From assembly GCA_965116875.1 (NCBI GenBank), contig OZ220733.1, positions 1,344,001 through 1,408,000 of the forward strand: a stretch of DNA of 64,000 nt, written 5' to 3'. A program made the position numbers and the translations under genes. This document shows, piece after piece, positions 19,179 through 26,767 of the stretch (position 1 is its first letter; every line of letters begins with the position of its first letter). Source of the DNA: Candidatus Latescibacterota bacterium (GTDB taxonomy: Bacteria > Latescibacterota > UBA2968 > GCA-2709665). Under the pieces are notes generated by a model. That model was given only the letters and a program-made list of their open reading frames with translations. It did no database searches and was not told where the DNA came from.

Positions 19179-21584
19179 ATGTTCTATCGAATCCAGCCAT
19201 GGAGTCCGGCTGTCGCCCTGTTGATCTGTCTGTTTACGGTATCCGGCGCCGTGTCGGCCGGCGAGTTTACACTCACGATTCTGCACAACAACGACGCCGA
19301 GTCCCGGTTGATAAACGCCGGAGAGGGCCTGGAAGACTTCGGCGGCGCGGACCGATTCAAGACCCTGGCGGATCGGCTCAAAGCCGAAGCGCGAATGGAC
19401 GGCGGCGTGATCATGGTATCGTCGGGAGACAATTTCCTCGCAGGCCCGGAGTTTAACGTCAGCCTCCGGCGCCCCGAATCCTCCCCCTTCTACGACGCCC
19501 TCGCGATGGACCTGATCGGGTACGACGCCGTGTGTATCGGCAACCACGACTTCGACTTCGGACCGGACGTCCTGGTCAGGTTCATTTCCGGTTACAGTTT
19601 CACCCACCCGCCGTATCTCAGCGCCAACCTGGACTTCGGGGACGAACCGGGACTGGCGGAACTCGTCGCTTCCGGACGGGTCGCCGGGAGCGCGGTCGTC
19701 CAGGTCGACGGCGAACATATCGGCATCGTGGGCGCCACCACCCCGGACCTGGCGTTCATCTCCAGTCCGCGAAACGTGAGGGTGGACGGCGGGCTGCTGG
19801 AAGCCATCCAGGCCGAAGTGAACGGGCTGGCGCTGCGCGGGGTGCGTATCATTGTTCTGATCAGCCACCTCCAGTCCCTTGACAACGATCTGGAGCTGGC
19901 GCGTGAATTGCGGGGCGTGGACGTGGTGATCGCGGGCGGCGGCGACGACGTCCTGGCCAATCCGGGAACGCGTCTTGTTCCCGGCGACGAAGCCGTGATT
20001 TCCGGACCGTACCCATTAATCGAACAGGGCGCAGACGGAAACGACGTTCACGTTGTCACCACTGCCGGGAACTATCGCTACCTGGGCCGGTTCGTGGCCA
20101 GTTTCAATGCTGCCGGCGTCATTTCATCCGTCGACCGGGACGCCAGCGGCCCGGTGCGGGTGGCCGGGGGCGGCCACCCGGATGCCGTGGTCCCCGACGA
20201 GGACGTCCGGAACCGGGTTGTCGCCCCGGTCATCGATGCCCTCGCTTCCCTTGCTTCCAATCCGGTGGGAACGTCGGAAGTTGCGCTCGACGGCGTGAAG
20301 AGCAGGATCCGGACCCGGGAGACCAACGAAGGCAACCTGGTGGCAGACGCCCTCCGGTGGCAATGCGCGCAACTCGCTTCGTCATTCGGCGTTCCCGTTC
20401 CTCAGGTGGGAATTTTGAACGGAGGGGGCATACGCAACGCCAGCGAGATTCCGGCCGGCGTGATATCCGAACTCACGCCCTTCAACATACTGCCGTTCCC
20501 CAACTTCGTCGCCGTTGTGCCCGAAATACCTGCGGCACGATTCAGGGAAATCATGGAGAACGCGGTTTCGAAGGTGGAACGCACCTCGGGGCGATTCGCC
20601 CAGATTTCGGGCTTCACGATGGTCTGGAATCCGGACGGCGTCGCTCAGGAACTGGATGAGAGTGGAAACGTCACGCAACGCGGCGGCCGCATTGTGGAGA
20701 TCACCCTTGACTCGGGCGCCGGCATCGTCGAAAACGGAAACATCGTATCCGGTGCGCCGGATATTCACGTGGCAACCGTCGACTTCCTCGCCATGGGCGG
20801 TGACCAGTACCCCTATCGGGGCGCCCGCTTCACCCGTCTGGGCGTAACCTACCAGCAGGCGCTTGTCAGCTTCATCAGGGAAGGCCTCATGGGCCGGATC
20901 ACAGCGGCGGCCTATCCGGAAGGTGGACAGGGCCGGATTACCACCGGGCAACCGAAGCCCGCAAACGAGTCGGACGTCGCGAACCGCTCGGTCGTACACG
21001 TGTTCCTGACGCGAGACGGCGTGCCGTTGCCGGACGTGCGGGTCGAATTCTCACGTTCGATTTCCGGTCGCGCGCCGGATTACCGGTGGAGGGAAACAAC
21101 CGACGGCGAAGGCCGCGCCACCATAGAAATCCAACCTGAAAGCCGACGAAGCGTCTCGGGCTACTACGCGGTTCGTGCAGTGGAGATCGCGGGCAATACG
21201 ATCTCCAGATGGGAGAGCGTCCCGATCAACGGCGGACGGGAAATCACACTCCTCCTTCCGGCAGGCGGCGTCGCCCGCGTGGAGGAGGAACGATTGTTGG
21301 CCGCGGACGCCCTGGCGCTCTATCCGAATACGCCAAACCCGTTCAACCCCTCAACCCGGATCGGCTACCGGATTCCTGAAGCGGGGCAGGTCGATCTCAC
21401 GATCTACAATGTACTGGGTCAGCAGGTCCGGACTCTGGTACAGGACCACCAGAGCCGTGGCCCGTATGAGGTCCTTTGGGACGGAAAAGACGGGTTCGGA
21501 CGTACCGTTTCCAGCGGCGTTTATTTCTATCGGCTGGCGCATCCGGGCGGCGCACTCACCAAACGCATGCTCCTGGTCAAATAA
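19179..21584 (+). CDS. Secreted bifunctional metallophosphoesterase/5'-nucleotidase with C-terminal FlgD-Ig/T9SS-like tail
   Basis: Signal peptide; HNNDAES, SGDNF, GNHDFD, ETNEGNLVADA, NGGGIR, GRFAQISG; tail NTPNPFNPSTRIGY..WDGKD..VSSGVYFY..KRMLLVK. Confidence 0.88.
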   Translation: MFYRIQPWSPAVALLICLFTVSGAVSAGEFTLTILHNNDAESRLINAGEGLEDFGGADRFKTLADRLKAEARMDGGVIMVSSGDNFLAGPEFNVSLRRPESSPFYDALAMDLIGYDAVCIGNHDFDFGPDVLVRFISGYSFTHPPYLSANLDFGDEPGLAELVASGRVAGSAVVQVDGEHIGIVGATTPDLAFISSPRNVRVDGGLLEAIQAEVNGLALRGVRIIVLISHLQSLDNDLELARELRGVDVVIAGGGDDVLANPGTRLVPGDEAVISGPYPLIEQGADGNDVHVVTTAGNYRYLGRFVASFNAAGVISSVDRDASGPVRVAGGGHPDAVVPDEDVRNRVVAPVIDALASLASNPVGTSEVALDGVKSRIRTRETNEGNLVADALRWQCAQLASSFGVPVPQVGILNGGGIRNASEIPAGVISELTPFNILPFPNFVAVVPEIPAARFREIMENAVSKVERTSGRFAQISGFTMVWNPDGVAQELDESGNVTQRGGRIVEITLDSGAGIVENGNIVSGAPDIHVATVDFLAMGGDQYPYRGARFTRLGVTYQQALVSFIREGLMGRITAAAYPEGGQGRITTGQPKPANESDVANRSVVHVFLTRDGVPLPDVRVEFSRSISGRAPDYRWRETTDGEGRATIEIQPESRRSVSGYYAVRAVEIAGNTISRWESVPINGGREITLLLPAGGVARVEEERLLAADALALYPNTPNPFNPSTRIGYRIPEAGQVDLTIYNVLGQQVRTLVQDHQSRGPYEVLWDGKDGFGRTVSSGVYFYRLAHPGGALTKRMLLVK

Positions 21585-21638
21585 CCAACGCCCGGCGCAA
21601 ACCGGACTCGCATCGGCTGCTTTCCGCCTTCCGTTCTC

Positions 21639-21667
21639 TTGACGAAGCCGACCGTTTCCGGTATATT
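21639..21667 (+). promoter_or_regulatory. Sigma70-type promoter for the leader peptide/TonB-receptor locus
   Basis: TTGACG-N17-TATATT, 47 nt upstream of ATG 21715. Confidence 0.65.
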
Positions 21668-21714
21668 TCCAAACGGATCACGGAAAGTTCTGTACTCTTC
21701 CGGAGACGGTCGGG

Positions 21715-21990
21715 ATGTTTTATTCCCGCAGACGGATTCATCCTTTCGTCGTTTTCGCTCTGGCGATATTCGCGGCCTACCTTGCGGTTTTTCTGGTTGC
21801 CGCCTTCCCCGGACACGATCACGATCACCAATGTACTGTCTGCGCCTGGTTCAACAACCTGAGCGTAAGTCTGCCGGCAGTGCTGGTGTTGCAACTTTGC
21901 TTTCTGTATTTCGGACAGGGTTTTTCCTCGTTCCGCTCCCCGCGCTCTTCCCTCCTTCTGCCAGACGGACGCGCACCGCCCGTGTCCTGA
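21715..21990 (+). CDS. DUF2946/CruR-like leader peptide (TM helix, HDHDHQCTVC, C-terminal RAPP)
   Basis: 91 aa: hydrophobic N-terminus, His-rich plus CxxC motif, ends GRAPPVS; lies upstream of a TonB-dependent receptor. Confidence 0.78.
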   Translation: MFYSRRRIHPFVVFALAIFAAYLAVFLVAAFPGHDHDHQCTVCAWFNNLSVSLPAVLVLQLCFLYFGQGFSSFRSPRSSLLLPDGRAPPVS

Positions 21991-22304
21991 TCCATCCTCT
22001 CGTGTCTTTATGACGCCCCTCAGTACTTCCGGTGTTTTTCAACTAGATCGTTCCGGGTCGGCCCCGGCTCAAACCCAGGCCTGAAGAAATGTGGCCCGGT
22101 CTTGCCTGCGGGCAGACTCTCGGAACCGCGTATCACGTATTCCCGCCCCTCTTCGGGTCAGGCTGCATCCGCAAAGGCGGATAACCGGCCCCGCAAATCT
22201 GCGTGTCGGCAACCTGCCGGCACAACCGCAGTTCGTCTGCCACACAGGCGGATGTTCATGCGTTTTTCGGGCGAAGTGACATTCTGGTACACAGGAGAAC
22301 ATTA

Positions 22305-23558
22305 ATGTTCAGCATTCTGAAGATGAAAACCTCCCTTCACTGGATTGCAACGGCGGCGTTTGTTGCCGTGTTTCTGTCCGGTTGTGGAAAAGATGACCCC
22401 GTTACGCCACAGGAAGAGCATTACGAAGCCGAGGGCCTCGTCCTCCTGGACTCCGGCCAGCGGTTCTTCAGGTATTTCCAGGGCAGGATCGACTCGGGCG
22501 ACGGCCGGGCGGAAGCCCTGGAAGTCACTCACGGCGAAGTGACCAGCAAGTGGAGCATCCGCTTCCTGGACAAGGACGGAAATGAAATGGCGCCCCCCAC
22601 CGGCGATGGCTTCACCTTCACGTGGGAAATTGCGGACCGGGATATTGTGGAAGTCGTCCAGGACGAGGGGGAAGCGGGCAAATTCGTCTTCGCCCTGCGC
22701 GGCCTCGAAGATGGCGAAACCACCATCAGACTTCAGATTTCGCACGAAGGGCACGTGGACTTCACCACGCTGCCGCTTCCGGTACACGTGGTCGGAGAAT
22801 TCGAGGCGGAAGGGATTGTTATCATCGAATCCGGCGTTCGGTTCTTCCGATATTTCCAGGGCGAGATCGACTCCGGCGAGGGTCGGGTATCGGAACTCAT
22901 GGCCCCGATCGGCCTGACGCCTCACTGGCGCATCATGTTTCTGGATGAACACGGAGACGAAATCGACCCGCCGGACGATCCCGAATTCACGTTCGGCTGG
23001 ACCATTGCCGATCCCGACATACTCGAAGTCCACCAGGACGAGGGCGACGAGGGTTCATTCGACTTCCACCTGCGCGGCCTGCATGAGGGCGAGACCACCA
23101 TTGTATTCGAAGTCAGACACGAAGGCCACGTTGACTACCGCACACAGCCCATTCCCGTACACGTGGAGTCACAGGAGGGTCAGCACGAGGAACCCGTTGG
23201 CGTTCGGCTCAAGGAGGAAGACAGCGGTGAGTTGCTCACACAGGCGCCCCTCGAGGGAGAAGGCACGGCCACCGAGGACCTGACTGTCGCCGTCGGCGAT
23301 ACAACCGACCACATCGCAGCGTTCTTCTTTGACGAACACGACGTTGAATTCCAGCCGGAAGCGCCCGACGAGACGCTGGGGATTGCGGTGGCCGACACGT
23401 CATTGCTGGCCATCGATCCGCCTGTGGCGCCGGAATACTGGGCCTTCAGACTCATCGGCAAGAAGGCCGGCACAACCACCATAACCCTTTCCATTCTCCA
23501 CGACGATGAGGCGGAAGCCGAATTCGCGCCCATTTCGGTGGCGGTCACCGCACCGTAG
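22305..23558 (+). CDS. Acidic lipoprotein with three tandem Ig-like repeats carrying HEGH motifs (putative metal-binding)
   Basis: AGGAG RBS; lipobox LSGC; repeats EAEG..RFFRYFQG..HEGHVD(F/Y)..PVHV. Confidence 0.8.
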   Translation: MFSILKMKTSLHWIATAAFVAVFLSGCGKDDPVTPQEEHYEAEGLVLLDSGQRFFRYFQGRIDSGDGRAEALEVTHGEVTSKWSIRFLDKDGNEMAPPTGDGFTFTWEIADRDIVEVVQDEGEAGKFVFALRGLEDGETTIRLQISHEGHVDFTTLPLPVHVVGEFEAEGIVIIESGVRFFRYFQGEIDSGEGRVSELMAPIGLTPHWRIMFLDEHGDEIDPPDDPEFTFGWTIADPDILEVHQDEGDEGSFDFHLRGLHEGETTIVFEVRHEGHVDYRTQPIPVHVESQEGQHEEPVGVRLKEEDSGELLTQAPLEGEGTATEDLTVAVGDTTDHIAAFFFDEHDVEFQPEAPDETLGIAVADTSLLAIDPPVAPEYWAFRLIGKKAGTTTITLSILHDDEAEAEFAPISVAVTAP

Positions 23559-23623
23559 CAGAAAGCGCGGCGGGAGGGTTGTTCTCGCCCTCCCGCCATC
23601 CGCAACACGGGAGCACATTTCAA

Positions 23624-25899
23624 ATGGCCGGCTTGTTCAGGATATCGGATCTGCAGCCGGGTGACGGCTCCGGCCACCGTTCCGCCATCCGGCTGCACTT
23701 TATCCGGGCGATCCTCGCGGTGCTGTCCGTGGCCTGTCTGGCAGGGTCCGGCTCGGCAACTCAGGCCGTATTGATCGAAGGGTATGTCTTCGACGGCGAG
23801 ACCGGACTCCCCGTCTGGAACGTGAACGTCAAGCCCGCAGATCACTCCCCCGGCGCGTCTACGGACGAAAAAGGCCGGTTCGTGCTCCATCTGTCACCGG
23901 GTGACTATCGGCTTTCACTTTCGCACGTCGGCTATCAGGAAACGAACCACGAACTGAACGTCTCGGGTGCGAAGCATCCCGTTGTCTATCTGGAACTGGC
24001 GCGGCTGGATCACCGGCTGGACCCCATCGACGTTGTTGCCGAACGCGCTGAAACCCGATTTGAGGAACTGCACGAGGCCACCCGGGTGCTTTCGGGCGAC
24101 GAACTCAGGAAGAAATACAGCATCACGTTGGCCGAGACCATGAAGAACGAACTCGGCGTTGCCATCCGGAGCATGGGGCCGGCGCCGGCCCGCCCCGTCA
24201 TCCGCGGGCTCAGCGGCGACCGGGTACAGATCAACGTCGACGGCATTCAGTCTCAGGACCTTTCCGCAACGTCGGCTGACCATGCGGTAACCGTCGAGAC
24301 GTTCAACGCGGAACGCCTGGAAATCATCCGCGGACCCCGCACGCTGCTGCACACCTCCACGGCCGGCGGCGGCGTGATCAACGTCGTCAAGCACAGGATC
24401 CCCGAAACCCGGCCGGAGCGCTTCTTCGGGAGCGTGGGCGCCTACGGGGAAACAGCGAACCGGGGATATTTCTCGTCCGCCGCCCTCACCGCGCCCGTGG
24501 GTCCGTTCGCGATGCGCGCCGAGTCCACCTACCGGGATACCCGGGACATCCAGACCCCGGTCGGCCGGCTTGCCAACACGCCCATCAACACCCGCACATA
24601 TGCCCTCGGCGTGTCCTACGCGGGCGACCGGGGGTACGTCGGCGGATCATTCGATCAATTCGAGACTCAGTACGGCATTCCGGGCGGATTCATCGGCGCC
24701 CATCCCAACGGCGCGGACCTCGATATCATCCGTCGGGTCTTCGATGGAAAGGCTGTCTATCGGTTCGTCCACGGAACGGCAGACAGAATCGAGGCGGGCT
24801 TCACGAAGGCCTATTACTACCACGTCGAATACGAGTCGAGCGGCAGCATCGGATCCGAGTTTCTCTTTCATGACTACAGCGGCGATCTCAAACTCACCTG
24901 AACACGGGAAACAAGGAGCAAAACACCGTACTCACCGCCGGCTTCGAACACCGCAATCTCAAGCTGGGCGCTTTCGTCTTCACCCCGCCCACCCGAAAGC
25001 AGGACGTCAACTTCGGGCTGTATCACGAAACTGCCTGGCGCAATATCGAACTGCAGGCCGCGGCGCGTTACGCCTATGCCACTTTCGACCCGCGCCTACA
25101 GGCGGTCACCAACGCGAACCTGGACATCGACCGCACCTTCCATACATGGTCCGCGGCATTCAGTCCGCTCGTGCCGATTACCGGCCAGCTGACGGCCGGC
25201 TTCAGCCTCAGCCGCTCCCAGCGCGCGCCCACCATCGAGGAACTCTACAACGAAGGACCGCACCTGGCCGCTTACACCTTTGAGAAGGGCAACGTGGAAC
25301 TCAATGCCGAACGCAGTTTCGGCGCGGAGGCGTTCTTCCACTACCTCCAGCCGGGATTCGACCTGGTCTTCACCGGATTCTGGAACGAGTTCGGCAATTA
25401 CATCGCGCCGCGAAATACGGGAGAAATCAACTTTGCTCAGCTTCTTCCCATCTACGCCGCGGAAGGGATAGACGCGAGAATGGCCGGGGTGGAAACCCAC
25501 CTGAAATGGCGTCCGAACGCACGCCTGGAACTCGAGATGAACCTGAGCCACGTGCGCGGCGAAAACCGGGACGACCGTATGCCCCTTCCGGAAATGCCGC
25601 CGCTCAAGTTCGTCGGCAGCGCAGCCTACAGGCACCCCTGGCTAACCGGGGGAGGGACCATGGAGTGGGCCGCGGGGCAGGAGCGTGTGGATACCTATGA
25701 AGACCCCACCGACGGCTATTCCGTCTTGGGCATGTACATTCAGCGCGATTTCGTCGCGAATCGGGCTCGCCACAGCTTTATCCTGTCCCTCGAGAATCTC
25801 TTCGACACGGAATACCGCAACCACCTGTCGCGCATCCGCTCCGTGATGCCCGAAACCGGACGCAGCCTTAAACTGAACTACAAGATGTATTTCTTCTAA
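23624..25899 (+). pseudogene. ZnuD-like TonB-dependent receptor split by a 1-nt frameshift near 24898 (pseudogene or sequencing error)
   Basis: N-terminal carboxypeptidase-regulatory-like domain, plug RPVIRGLSGDRV..SADHAV..EIIRGP; after TGA at 24899-24901 the -1 frame is open to RAPTIEELYNEGPH..ENLFDTEYRNHLS..PETGRSLKLNYKMYFF. Confidence 0.85.
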
Positions 25900-25923
25900 C
25901 GTCCGCTCAGCGTCAACAGAAAA

Positions 25924-25975
25924 CCAAAGAAGTCAACCCCGTGTCACTTGTTGAACACGGGGTTGACTTCTTTGG
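25924..25975. terminator. Long hairpin between convergent genes, probable bidirectional terminator
   Basis: Perfect 21-bp stem CCAAAGAAGTCAACCCCGTGT / ACACGGGGTTGACTTCTTTGG, 10-nt loop. Confidence 0.8.
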
Positions 25976-26020
25976 ACCTGTTTGTCTACTCACAGCTGAC
26001 GCCCGGCCGCAATCCCCTCC

Positions 26021-26767
26021 TTAGTTTTTCCCCAGCATCTCCCTCCGCATCACGCGTTCCACGATGCGCGGACTCCAGGTACCCAGAAGAGCCGCCGTGC
26101 GGTTTCCGAAACCCGGAACGAGCAGGCGTTTTCGCTTCCCGATGCCGCGAAGGATCGCCTCCGCCAGGTCTTCAGGCGGCATGCGTTTTTCCTCTCGCGA
26201 ATTGTCGGGGCTGTACCGGCGGGCATGCGCTGTACGTGTCGGTCCCGGAAAGACCGTCATAACGTGTATATCGCGCGGGGCAAGCCCGACGGAGAGACTT
26301 CGTGCGTATGACGCCAGCCCGCTCTTGGTTGCCGCGTACGCCGCGGCGCCCGGATAGCTCACGTAGTGCGAGAGAGAGGAGACGAAAACGAGGGATCCGC
26401 CGGGCACAATGCGGTTTGCCTCCAGCAGTCTCGCCGTCAACGCCATGGGCGCCTCGAAGTTTACCGCGACCACCTGCTCCAGATCCGTCAAACCCACGCG
26501 GGGAAACCGTCCCACGGCGTTGATCCCCGCGTTGTGAATGAGTACGTCGATCGGGTCCATCGAGCCCAGTTGATCGTGAACGCGCACAACGCCCGATGGG
26601 GTACCCAGATCGGCAATGACAAATCGCGCGCCCAGCTCCGGCTCGAGACCCGCGGCGCCTTTTGCATCCACGTCTACGCCGGTTACGGAATACCCGGCAC
26701 GAACAAGCCTGCGTGCGAGCGACTCGCCAATTCCATTCGCCGCGCCTGTTATGACCGCGTGTTTCAT
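26021..26767 (-). CDS. Short-chain dehydrogenase/reductase
   Basis: ITGAANGIG, HNAG, YAATK; ATG overlaps the upstream stop. Confidence 0.9.
   Translation of the reverse strand: MKHAVITGAANGIGESLARRLVRAGYSVTGVDVDAKGAAGLEPELGARFVIADLGTPSGVVRVHDQLGSMDPIDVLIHNAGINAVGRFPRVGLTDLEQVVAVNFEAPMALTARLLEANRIVPGGSLVFVSSLSHYVSYPGAAAYAATKSGLASYARSLSVGLAPRDIHVMTVFPGPTRTAHARRYSPDNSREEKRMPPEDLAEAILRGIGKRKRLLVPGFGNRTAALLGTWSPRIVERVMRREMLGKN

Follow-up and report, generated by a model that had tools for sequence, protein, structure and literature searches.

A candidate metal-sensing leader with a C-terminal RAPP motif ahead of a lipoprotein and a ZnuD-like receptor

The locus considered here, part of a 64,000-nt stretch of DNA analysed as a whole (the window), raises the question of what is done by a 91-codon open reading frame that ends in RAPP and precedes the genes of a lipoprotein and a TonB-dependent receptor. 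The answer that we favour, with moderate confidence, is that it encodes a RAPP-stalling, metal-sensing leader of the CruR/CutF class which heads a three-gene operon, with a Rho-dependent read-out and with zinc a likelier effector than copper. The leader would most likely act as an on/off switch of an operon for metal uptake, the metal probably being zinc.

The leader gene, its operon and its family

The features of the locus are the following, with the basis of each assignment in brackets.
21639..21667, + strand: sigma-70-type promoter, TTGACG-17-TATATT (the sole promoter-like site in 21300-26300)
21715..21990, + strand: leader (uORF) gene, 91 aa (ORF call, homologues, selection)
21814..21843, + strand: codons of a putative metal-binding loop, H34-D-H-D-H-Q-C40-T-V-C43 (invariant residues in homologues)
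21970..21981, + strand: predicted ribosome-arrest site, codons R86-A87-P88-P89 (invariance, analogy with CruR)
21991..22304, + strand: spacer of 314 nt, candidate Rho-loading/termination region (C-richness, skew, fold)
22305..23558, + strand: lipoprotein gene, 417 aa (lipobox, homologues, model)
23624..25899, + strand: gene of a ZnuD-like TonB-dependent receptor (Pfam CarboxypepD_reg, Plug and barrel)
25926..25973, no strand assigned: 20-bp hairpin (lies past the receptor gene and before the convergent genes downstream)

The preliminary description had all these elements in the right place, but it missed a frameshift in the receptor gene at about 24894/24895, and likewise two more leader copies outside this locus.

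The promoter scored 10/12 matches and was the one sigma-70-like hit of its region, where shuffled sequence gave 1.1 hits on average. It is near-invariant across 17 aligned orthologous loci, and more distant copies of the leader show equivalent hexamers about 45 nt ahead of the start codon. In a family survey that yielded 41 leader copies from Gemmatimonadota genomes, 40 had the gene of the lipoprotein (34 copies) or of the receptor (6 copies) behind them in the same orientation, which bears out the gene order proposed earlier. A three-gene operon (leader, Ig-repeat lipoprotein, receptor) transcribed from the promoter at 21639 is the best explanation of the locus. The lipoprotein has a lipobox, LSGC, with an invariant Cys27, HEGHVD motifs, and three tandem Ig-like domains with conserved H39, H207, H255, H272, H275 and D277. 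Its AlphaFold2 model is all-beta (mean pLDDT 86.2) and retrieved in Foldseek generic Ig-domain arrays only; many of its 56 homologues carry PF26181. The terminal hairpin is likely a bidirectional terminator: its T-run was scored for the - strand, whereas on the + strand the tail has only a moderate T content.

Concerning the leader peptide, a hydrophobic stretch at residues 11-31 (transmembrane helix or signal anchor) is followed by the His/Cys loop, a second uncharged hydrophobic stretch at residues 49-67, and RAPP at 86-89, two residues (V-S) short of the stop. In the 27 homologues found (identity 67-100%), H34, H36, C40, C43, W45, R86, A87, P88 and P89 are invariant without exception, and in a wider alignment of 14 sequences H36, C40 and C43 remain so. 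Two more copies of the leader lie elsewhere in the same genome, and paralogues have HDHDQ-C units inserted at the His/Cys loop. The median dN/dS is 0.33, with values below 1 in all 404 pairs, and the invariant RAPP residues are written with synonymous codons (CGC/CGT/CGG for Arg, GCA/GCC/GCG/GCT for Ala, CCT/CCG/CCA and CCC/CCT/CCG/CCA for the two Pro). Since selection acts on the peptide, the leader frame is, as judged from sequence, a real and translated gene, and the conservation claimed for the peptide is confirmed.

These data also bear on the reading of the frame as a chance opening in GC-rich DNA, within an ordinary 5' UTR. The motif by itself is common enough for this: translated in six frames, the genome contains RAPP 566 times, RGPP 561 times and RSPP 987 times, and R[AGS]PP falls inside the last 9 residues of 49 ORFs that are 45-200 aa long. 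However, the combination of an N-terminal hydrophobic helix, CxxC and a terminal RxPP was found in this genome only in the family's own copies. The existence of homologues, their invariant residues, varied in codon but not in amino acid, and the dN/dS contradict a chance frame, to which we give almost no credence.

All 41 leader copies keep the His cluster, CxxC and R[A/S]PP near the stop (RAPP in 32, RSPP in 9), with 2-3 residues between this motif and the stop codon in 40 of them, as would be expected from the preliminary description, which had stressed these motifs. The distance from CxxC to RxPP is 42 residues in 31 copies and 43 in 10, and it stays fixed although the intervening sequence drifts. 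The distance reported for DUF2946 proteins is 45 +/- 1-2, a difference that counts against kinship with CruR. Related leaders of another family end in RGPP; both RSPP and RGPP are reported as arrest-competent variants (PMC12992588).

A different function for the 91-aa product would be that of a stable two-helix inner-membrane protein that handles metal, for instance passing it on after the receptor, with RAPP causing no regulatory stall. Its two uncharged hydrophobic stretches, with a conserved loop of His and Cys facing the periplasm between them, fit such a protein, as does the conservation of the whole peptide beyond the motifs alone. It is hard to explain in this way, though, why R[A/S/G]PP, a type of motif reported to be avoided by proteomes (PMC12992588), keeps its place 2-3 residues short of the stop in families that are otherwise about 25% identical. 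The fixed CxxC spacing amid drifting sequence, and the last leader codons of a sister genus (g11), which double as an anti-Shine-Dalgarno (SD) sequence, also speak against it. We consider this function very improbable.

The link to DUF2946, the family of CruR, had been proposed earlier and stands for the relatives, weakly, but not for the window peptide, which gave no Pfam match at E<=1, DUF2946 included. DUF2946 was nevertheless the most frequent Pfam match of the relatives (18/27, all below threshold; the next family, 3/27). One bridging distant relative, P0030, is reached by the family profile (E 9.8e-6) and passes the DUF2946 cut-off (25.5 bits against 23.7), which no member of the phylum reached in 168 genomes. 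We read the leader as a divergent, unannotated arrest peptide of the CruR/CutF (DUF2946-like) class, on homology signals that are weak and transitive.

Proposed arrest and read-out

We infer the stalling, the direction of the switch and the involvement of Rho, like the identity of the metal, along the following lines. By analogy with CruR, whose toeprint is described in PMC12992588, the ribosome would stall at the invariant RAPP with Pro88 in the P site and the Pro89 codon in the A site. During the stall, 45-54 residues would separate the His-x-His...CxxC loop from the peptidyl-transferase centre, which would place the loop right beyond the exit tunnel, and the first hydrophobic helix would anchor the stalled nascent loop to the membrane. 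Again as in CruR, the stall would persist without metal and keep downstream expression on, while metal bound to the nascent loop would relieve it, so that the ribosome proceeds to termination and the lipoprotein and receptor genes are expressed less. While stalled, the ribosome would keep Rho off the C-rich RNA of the leader 3' end and the spacer start, and its release would permit Rho-dependent termination inside the spacer.

The composition of 21900-22080 is C 38%, T 29%, G 22% and A 12%. The spacer (21991-22304) starts C-rich and with little structure, and its distal part is structured (fold z-score of the spacer, -3.2). The GC skew of -0.41 at 21920-21997 falls in the lowest 0.5% of 78-nt windows genome-wide, although the 380-nt average of -0.15 is unremarkable (7th percentile). 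The excess of C over G was found in 41/41 copies; at the leader 3' end it is partly a by-product of Ser, Pro, Leu and Arg codons. No intrinsic terminator was detected on the + strand of the spacer and no Rfam family matched it. Rho is present in the genome (699 bits, cut-off 509).

The same sensor and stall could instead be read out at translation, in the manner of CutF, if RNA masked the SD of the lipoprotein gene and a stalled or queued ribosome opened the mask. Such a design is suggested by sister genus g11, where the last three codons and the stop codon of the leader pair with the lipoprotein SD in a 14-bp stem. There the duplex z-scores are between -2.6 and -4.1 in 8/10 copies, and among 9 sequences one pair is compensatory, a stop-codon change UGA->UAA being matched by C->U in the arm of the SD. 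For the window, the alignment fold allows the AGGAG of the SD to pair over 5 bp with CUCCU in leader codons 80-81 (21952-21956). This pairing, however, bridges about 340 nt and, at 20-24 nt ahead of the P-site codon, falls outside the footprint of the stalled ribosome; moreover, complementarity between the leader end and the SD is no better in the window than in shuffles (z = -0.69), the 17 loci whose spacer measures about 300 nt give z from -2.3 to +1.5, and the folds around the SD are weak (-4 to -15 kcal/mol) and differ between orthologues. A translational read-out is thus unlikely at this locus. Because the spacer is long (314 nt) and C-rich, Rho is present, and neither an intrinsic terminator nor SD masking was found, a transcriptional, CruR-like read-out is the most likely one in the genus of the window.

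The receptor and the effector metal

The receptor gene of the window is split over two frames (23624..24901, then about 24883..25899). Relative to 13/13 aligned orthologues/paralogue, one base is missing at about 24894/24895, which brings a TGA in frame at 24899-24901. Contigs of two runs have an additional C behind 24894, and the missing base is probably an assembly error. The intact orthologue (L036 2432..4708, 758 aa) has as its best solved match ZnuD of Neisseria meningitidis (4rdr, E 1.1e-34), in line with the ZnuD-like character first proposed, and scores 191.9 bits, far below the cut-off of 950, with the NCBIfam ZnuD model (NF038289). The plug motif SADHAV aligns with SPDHAI of ZnuD, and the GPH segment ELYNEGPHLAAYTFEKGN with ELYAHGKHVATNTFEVGN. 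On the other hand, the window receptor has an extra N-terminal CarboxypepD_reg domain, and just these two stretches align. Besides ZnuD and OprC, no solved chain matched at E<=1e-8; the CrtA structure, reported in PMC12914433, was not among the matches.

Zinc is more likely than copper as the effector, judging from sequence relationships, because the closest solved relative of the receptor is ZnuD and because a related leader in another genus (g28) heads an ABC importer of the ZnuA type. The genes behind the latter leader encode an outer-membrane protein, a binding protein of the ZnuA family (161 bits; AztC with 84 bits and MntC with 83.7 bits fell short of their cut-offs) and an ABC-3 permease. 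Binding proteins of this family have Mn or Fe as cargo too, which counts against the zinc reading. The preliminary description had suggested Zn/Ni/Co rather than Cu, and this importer operon lends support to a zinc-type reading of a putative metal response.

It is somewhat unlikely that the leader senses copper and that the operon imports a copper chelate. CxxC is a classic Cu(I) site and the Cu-binding motif that matters in CruR (PMC9426467), and both characterised DUF2946 leaders, CruR and CutF, are reported to respond to Cu. The C-terminal half of the receptor matches OprC (E 1e-9) and, below cut-off, the TonB-copper model TIGR01778 (E 3e-16). OprC is, however, a far more distant match to the receptor than ZnuD (E 1e-34), the leader family adds invariant His ligands, and its homologue in g28 heads the ZnuA-type importer. 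Importers of that type are not a class known for copper. In addition, the window holds downstream no PepSY_TM, PCuAC or ScoI gene, the companions reported for crtA/cruR operons (PMC12914433).

As for zinc, the zinc finger ADR1a has His2Cys2 as its ligand set, and its folding, which depends on Zn, relieves a SecM stall in vitro; the force was gone once the distance to the arrest point exceeded about 30 residues (PMC4571824). The putative site of the leader is 45-54 residues away, so a different mechanism of release would be needed.

Comparison with known systems

The principle of RAPP-type leaders ahead of TonB receptors is already published: RAPP/RGPP uORFs in this position were surveyed across Gram-negative phyla in 2025 (PMC12992588), so that an occurrence outside Proteobacteria, as proposed earlier, is not new. 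In its accessible part, the main text of that survey contains neither 'Gemmatimonadota' nor 'zinc' (0 occurrences each) and describes neither a zinc link nor a His2Cys2 loop. The surveyed uORFs, like ApdA and ApdP, share with the window leader the C-terminal RAPP-like core and the character of small secretory or membrane proteins encoded upstream of TonB-receptor genes.

The nearest parallel is with CruR of Bordetella pertussis (Bp2923, DUF2946/PF11162; cruR-bfrG(crtA)-bp2921). In both cases a small first gene of a TonB-receptor operon encodes an N-terminal export signal, CxxC and RAPP 2-3 residues ahead of the stop; a long spacer follows, with a C>G excess that begins inside the leader, and metal-uptake genes lie downstream. 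CruR is described (PMC9426467) with a CxxC-RAPP spacing of 45, RAPP three residues from the end, a spacer of 162 bp and a C>G bubble. The window leader differs in its lack of a PF11162 match, its length (91 aa against 145 aa), its spacing (42-43 against 45), its extra invariant His ligands, its second hydrophobic helix between CxxC and RAPP and its longer spacer (314 nt against 162 nt). An Ig-repeat lipoprotein and a ZnuD-like receptor stand here in place of a CrtA-type receptor and PepSY_TM, the phylum is Gemmatimonadota, and a metal other than copper is probable.

CutF, a DUF2946 protein of Rhodobacter capsulatus that leads cutFOG (bioRxiv 10.1101/2025.02.05.636593), resembles the window leader in its membrane-targeted nascent chain, its Cys motif, its C-terminal proline stall and the notion that the chain, once stalled, senses across the membrane. 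The SD-masking stem that the stalled ribosome opens in CutF has a counterpart in g11, but none is detectable in the window locus. The motifs of CutF are CxxxC and PPP, it depends on EF-P, and there it is metal that causes the stall and so switches on a detoxifying oxidase, whereas the operon of the window is one of uptake.

Zinc-handling genes beside a DUF2946-type first gene have a precedent in CC2720 of Caulobacter, which heads the Zur-activated zinc-efflux operon czrCBA-zntA (PMC4176598). That operon serves efflux, in a proteobacterium, and CC2720 is there, as far as the accessible text goes, listed as a hypothetical protein only and not read as a leader.

Finally, in the ADR1a-SecM fusion a His2Cys2 site on a nascent chain releases a C-terminal arrest in the presence of Zn(II) (PMC4571824). 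The fusion is synthetic and acts 24-26 residues from the arrest, inside the tunnel, whereas the loop proposed here is natural, 45-54 residues away and predicted to be membrane-anchored. As a laboratory construct, it shows that a switch of the proposed kind can work in principle.

Layout of the locus and the break in the receptor gene

The window lies in a genome of 5.45 Mb assembled as one contig, and all the elements read at this locus in the preliminary description (promoter, leader, spacer, lipoprotein, receptor and hairpin) were found, arranged as follows:

21639-21667, + strand: sigma-70-type promoter, TTGACG-17-TATATT
21715..21990, + strand: leader ORF, 91 codons
21991-22304, + strand: spacer, 314 nt
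22305..23558, + strand: lipoprotein gene, 417 aa, lipobox LSGC
23624..25899, + strand: TonB-dependent receptor gene, ATG at 23624; CarboxypepD_reg, Plug and barrel (Pfam)
25926-25973: 20-bp hairpin, followed by convergent genes

The zinc uptake systems known from bacteria are under the control of the repressor Zur; when the promoter regions were compared by eye, no common palindrome of the Zur-operator type was seen. The gene upstream of the promoter (19179-21584) encodes an 801-aa 5′-nucleotidase/metallophosphatase with a C-terminal FlgD_ig/Por_Secre_tail-like sorting domain, and as far as can be seen it has no apparent relation to the operon.

The receptor had been taken earlier as one gene, overlooking that it is split over two frames in the window. 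Compared to the aligned relatives (orthologues plus a paralogue), the window is short of one base at about 24894/24895, giving an in-frame TGA (window 24890-24901). A programmed frameshift was considered and rejected because 13 of the 13 relatives carry the extra base and keep a single frame throughout. Contigs of two public runs, X2 and X3, which may be the source of the window itself, contain 0.97 and 0.95 of the words sampled between 21600 and 24600. Both runs have an extra C behind 24894 (17.2 of 17.2 depth in X2, 6.48 of 11.9 in X3). A C stands at this position in the paralogue of 90% identity too, but no other difference near 24894 appears among the 40 of 67 entries listed. With moderate confidence, the break is most likely an assembly consensus error and not the mark of a pseudogene. 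In addition, contigs of two runs have 22014 joined directly to 23520 and lack the 1505 nt between, which make up the greater part of the spacer and lipoprotein gene. Origin of this join in the paralogous locus was rejected, as the paralogue junction is at about 22252/23509; it may be a strain variant.

The description of the receptor as ZnuD-like was borne out with an intact orthologue, about 92% identical to the two receptor fragments of the window. Its best solved relative was ZnuD (4rdr, E 1.1e-34, versus 1e-9 for OprC), and the SADHAV and EGPH segments pointed out earlier align to ZnuD. The NCBIfam ZnuD model NF038289 gave 191.9 bits with the intact orthologue and 126 and 67 bits with the window fragments, none of them reaching the cut-off of 950.

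Concerning expression, a metatranscriptome run labelled as sponge metagenome gave contigs on 6 of the 30 bins of the stretch. One RNA contig covers 22194-22424 with one other letter and so runs from the final 111 nt of the spacer into the lipoprotein gene, and another covers 24219-24674 with seven other letters; bins free of contigs are uninformative. As the contigs give no information on strand, ends or level and might stem from DNA carry-over, they hint weakly at best at transcription of the spacer-lipoprotein junction.

The leader gene, its operon partners and its relation to DUF2946

A word-indexed search of 5.8 billion proteins returned 27 homologues of the leader with 67-100% identity. 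The residues invariant in their alignment are M1, H9, P10, H34, H36, C40, C43, W45, F46, L81, P83, R86, A87, P88 and P89, so that both motifs stressed in the preliminary description, CxxC and RAPP (residues 86-89 of 91), are conserved in the orthologues; C40 and C43 are also invariant in a wider alignment of 14 sequences. The sole length variation among the 27 consists of extra HDHDQ-C units immediately N-terminal of the CxxC. At the DNA level, 29 copies from the genus gave medians of 0.17 for dN, 0.51 for dS and 0.33 for dN/dS, with all 404 of 404 pairs below 1, and the four RAPP codons vary synonymously, leaving the residues unchanged. The N-terminus is positively charged (MFYSRRRIHP) and followed by a hydrophobic helix; genome-wide, the combination of such a helix with CxxC and a terminal RxPP in one ORF was found in the family's own copies only. 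A RAPP-like core near the C-terminus of a small membrane or secretory-type protein located upstream of an operon, as in the arrest peptides of the ApdA/ApdP/SecM class, is thus present in the leader. Judged from this pattern of sequence conservation, the small ORF is a real gene. As a separate observation, a 7-bp hairpin (GGACGCG/CGUGUCC, window 21966-21987), present in both the alignment fold and the centroid fold, pairs codons G85-R86 with V90-S91 and encloses the two stall-site Pro codons.

The source records of the homologues of the window proteins are those of a Gemmatimonadota bacterium. With a profile built from the 27 sequences, the leader gene was found in 28 of 168 Gemmatimonadota genomes: 14/14 further genomes of the genus, 17/21 of the family, 8/31 of a second family and 2/76 of a third one, it being understood that absence from incomplete genomes is no proof of true absence. 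With 34 further stretches taken in, 41 leader copies were found by a pattern requiring CxxC, a spacer of 38-50 residues and a terminal RxPP, so the CxxC occurs in all of them by construction. Their CxxC-to-RxPP spacing is 42 (31/41) or 43 (10/41), their arrest motif RAPP (32) or RSPP (9), and 2-3 residues follow RxPP in 40 of the 41. The next same-strand gene codes for the lipoprotein in 34 copies, directly for the receptor in six and for neither in one; the proposed three-gene order is thus conserved, with 40 of 41 copies preceding lipoprotein and/or receptor.

Three leader copies occur in the genome of the window, the two others in tandem at 5322140-5323136 of its contig C1. This second locus (L034, G000:C1:5322041-5325868) has leaders of 100 and about 98 aa with additional HDHDQ-C units, an intact receptor paralogue, and a lipoprotein gene reduced to its first ~95 nt plus a 66-nt 3′ remnant. 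Decayed leaders were also met: at L042:474-1019 a frame change destroys RAPP (RASR...) and reading continues to 181 aa, and at L055:450-629 the leader ends straight after CxxC, with the receptor gene behind it also frameshifted. With P0031 and P0034 as single protein queries, searches of the genome contigs gave no matches.

Homologues of the lipoprotein number 56, PF26181 being precomputed on homologues. Its residues C27, H39, H272, H275 and D277 are invariant; H207 and H255 come close to this. An AlphaFold2 model (mean pLDDT 86.2) has three beta-sandwich domains, and a fold search with it found generic Ig-domain arrays only (S-layer, invasin, filamin, cadherin), with no functional lead. The Ig-like repeats of ~125 aa vary in number among close relatives: the window has three, the stretches L038 and L050 have about one, L053 has two and L042 has at least six. 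Perhaps the lipoprotein captures metal or a metallophore beside the receptor.

The HMM check against DUF2946 (PF11162) proposed earlier failed for the window peptide itself, which matched no Pfam family at E<=1. Its relatives matched weakly: PF11162 was hit in 18 of the 27, always sub-threshold (best E 0.0072, none at or above the 23.7-bit gathering score), versus 3 of 27 for the next family, and it was the top match in 7 of 12 further family members, P0030 (see below) being one of the 7. The alignments always cover the part from CxxC to the end, i.e. about positions 45-117 of the 117 of the profile. When 1.84 billion representatives were searched exhaustively with the leader-family profile (HMMER), only nine proteins came out at E<=0.001, one of which, the 401-aa repeat protein P0029, looks spurious. 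Another distant relative, P0030, matches both the leader-family profile (E 9.8e-6) and DUF2946 (25.5 bits, above the 23.7 cut-off) and therefore bridges the two; a search with P0030 for true DUF2946 sequences returned P0030 itself only. Within the phylum, DUF2946 was above the cut-off in 0 of 168 genomes and sub-threshold in 13, several of these cases being leaders with a C-terminal RGPP and a spacing, counted by eye, of 46, located upstream of a small His-tailed lipoprotein and a receptor. Such leaders, found in genus g25 (L072, L073, L077, L080, L081), are nearer to DUF2946 (about 22 bits); in L078 a RAPP leader lies upstream of a 400-aa porin-like protein ending in GSHPAH. The g25 leaders contain CPAC and RGPP, the latter two residues before the stop, are often in tandem, and each copy is followed by a ~175-aa lipoprotein with a His/Asp/Glu tail and then by the receptor. 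A language-model look-up, taken as a lead only, gave a cluster that was 54% DUF2946 at rank 29.

According to PMC9426467, CruR is marked by CxxC and, 45 residues on (+/-1-2), by RAPP, which lies three residues before its C-terminus; its spacer measures 162 bp and contains a C>G bubble, and its control depends on Rho. The leader shares with CruR the CxxC, the C-terminal RAPP, the position as first gene of an operon with a TonB-dependent transporter, and a long spacer in which a C>G bubble occurs. Its CxxC-RxPP spacing is fixed within the family at 42-43, that of CruR being 2-3 longer. The portion of PMC12992588 at hand places the two Pro codons of CruR in the P and A sites at arrest, considers RGPP and RSPP arrest-competent or arrest-permissive, and reports RAPP/RGPP uORFs before TonB receptors across Gram-negative phyla. 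Our reading of the sequences is that the leader forms a divergent branch of the CruR/CutF class and not a Pfam-level member.

Predicted stall geometry and two candidate read-outs

The spacer of the window begins within a C-rich, G-poor stretch formed by the 3′ end of the leader and the first ~100 nt of the spacer. GC skew is -0.41 at 21920-21997, in the lowest 0.5% of the 78-nt windows of the genome, and the C>G excess is found in 41 of 41 copies, part of it because of Ser, Pro, Leu and Arg codons. Directly 3′ of the leader stop codon the sequence shows good conservation, the distal part of the spacer has structure (fold z -3.2), and the spacer length is 287-316 nt in 17 loci. No intrinsic terminator was found on the + strand of the spacer, and no Rfam family matched leader or spacer at E<=1. 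The Rho gene is present in the genome. Together, these features fit a candidate Rho-loading site with a termination zone behind it.

The other read-out considered was masking of the lipoprotein Shine-Dalgarno sequence (SD) by the stall codons. For the window it was rejected, as the duplex of the leader end with this SD was no better than shuffles (z -0.69); the duplex z ranged from -2.3 to +1.5 over the 17 loci whose spacer measures about 300 nt. Local SD hairpins were not conserved between orthologues, and a 5-bp CUCCU:AGGAG pairing in the alignment fold was discarded for being too short and outside the footprint of the stalled ribosome.

The sister genus g11 gave another picture (loci L060-L068, e.g. 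L062:809-1000). Its leaders end in RSPP, the leader-lipoprotein-receptor modules are tandemly repeated and the spacers measure 103-147 nt. A 14-bp stem pairs the last three leader codons, the stop and two further bases (GUAGUCUCCUGAAU) with the lipoprotein SD (AUUCAGGAGAC..UAU); it is predicted in 9 of 9 sequences, the loop interior being unconserved, and a change at the stop codon (UGA to UAA) is compensated by C to U in the SD arm. Putative SD masking was accepted for the g11 leaders. With a masking stem in g11 and none in the class of the window, one family of sensors seems to be coupled to two read-outs, a stop-codon/anti-SD stem in the former and a long, C-rich and probably Rho-dependent spacer in the latter.

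In a ribosome stalled with Pro88 in the P site, the peptidyl-transferase centre would be 45-54 residues away from residues 34-43 and, the ribosomal exit tunnel holding about 30-40 residues, this loop would be placed just outside the tunnel. The stalled chain would be tethered by its first helix (11-31), with the second hydrophobic stretch (49-67) still within the tunnel, a geometry that parallels that of CruR. The RAPP stall would hold downstream expression on, and metal binding to the nascent loop would free the ribosome and turn expression off. This CruR logic (stall for on, metal for release) seems the natural choice because the operon is for uptake.

The presumed effector metal and comparison with known systems

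Zinc is the candidate effector metal favoured by several points, among them the position of ZnuD as best solved relative of the receptor. The leader family has invariant His residues beside the CxxC, giving a His2Cys2 set, and the paralogues expand HDHD-C units in the sensor loop. A laboratory precedent is the His2Cys2 finger of ADR1a, whose Zn-dependent folding releases a SecM stall, according to the accessible text of PMC4571824, only at 24-26 residues from the arrest point. The homologous leader of genus g28 (H-x-H, CAVCAWF, spacing 42, RAPP) heads an operon devoid of a TonB receptor:

L064:1148-4363, - strand (also L069): porin-like outer-membrane protein (C-terminal GSHPAH), ZnuA-family binding protein and ABC-3 permease

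The g28 binding protein scored 161 bits with the ZnuA-family Pfam model and, below the NCBIfam cut-offs, 84 bits with AztC and 83.7 with MntC. In g25 the lipoproteins have EEHEEHDDHDDEG-like tails at their ends. Three points weigh against zinc: CxxC is a motif for Cu(I), the cargo of ZnuA-family proteins also includes Mn and Fe, and both studied relatives (CruR and CutF) sense copper.

It is possible, though on balance rather doubtful, that the leader is a natural Zn-sensing chain, in which a membrane-anchored His2Cys2 loop outside the tunnel would have its RAPP stall released by Zn(II). It would then be the first non-copper member of CruR/CutF, with one sensor on two platforms in sister genera and with two kinds of zinc importer, a ZnuD-like receptor plus lipoprotein and a ZnuA-type ABC system. 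Should the family respond to zinc, arrest peptides that sense metals would amount to a general device tunable to the metal. Transcription attenuation and SD unmasking could also be compared in this family as two read-outs of one sensor, and it is because of the zinc link and of these two alternative read-outs that the leader merits experiment. Furthermore, an unnamed small gene in 28 of 168 Gemmatimonadota genomes gains an annotation, and the His-motif Ig-repeat lipoprotein is flagged as a likely partner of ZnuD-like receptors.

To our knowledge, post-transcriptional sensing by a nascent peptide has been demonstrated for copper only (CruR, CutF). The literature search found no zinc-responsive arrest peptide, and the supplements of PMC12992588 may list Gemmatimonadota cases. 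The nearest case is a table row in PMC4176598, in which a DUF2946 protein comes first in the czrCBA-zntA operon of Caulobacter. The crtA/cruR operons have PepSY_TM, PCuAC and Sco genes, as the available sections of PMC12914433 describe, whereas none of these was found at the window operon, which also favours zinc. The locus is not categorically new, as the principle is already known for copper from CruR and CutF, and the association of RAPP/RGPP uORFs with TonB receptors from the accessible part of a 2025 survey (PMC12992588).
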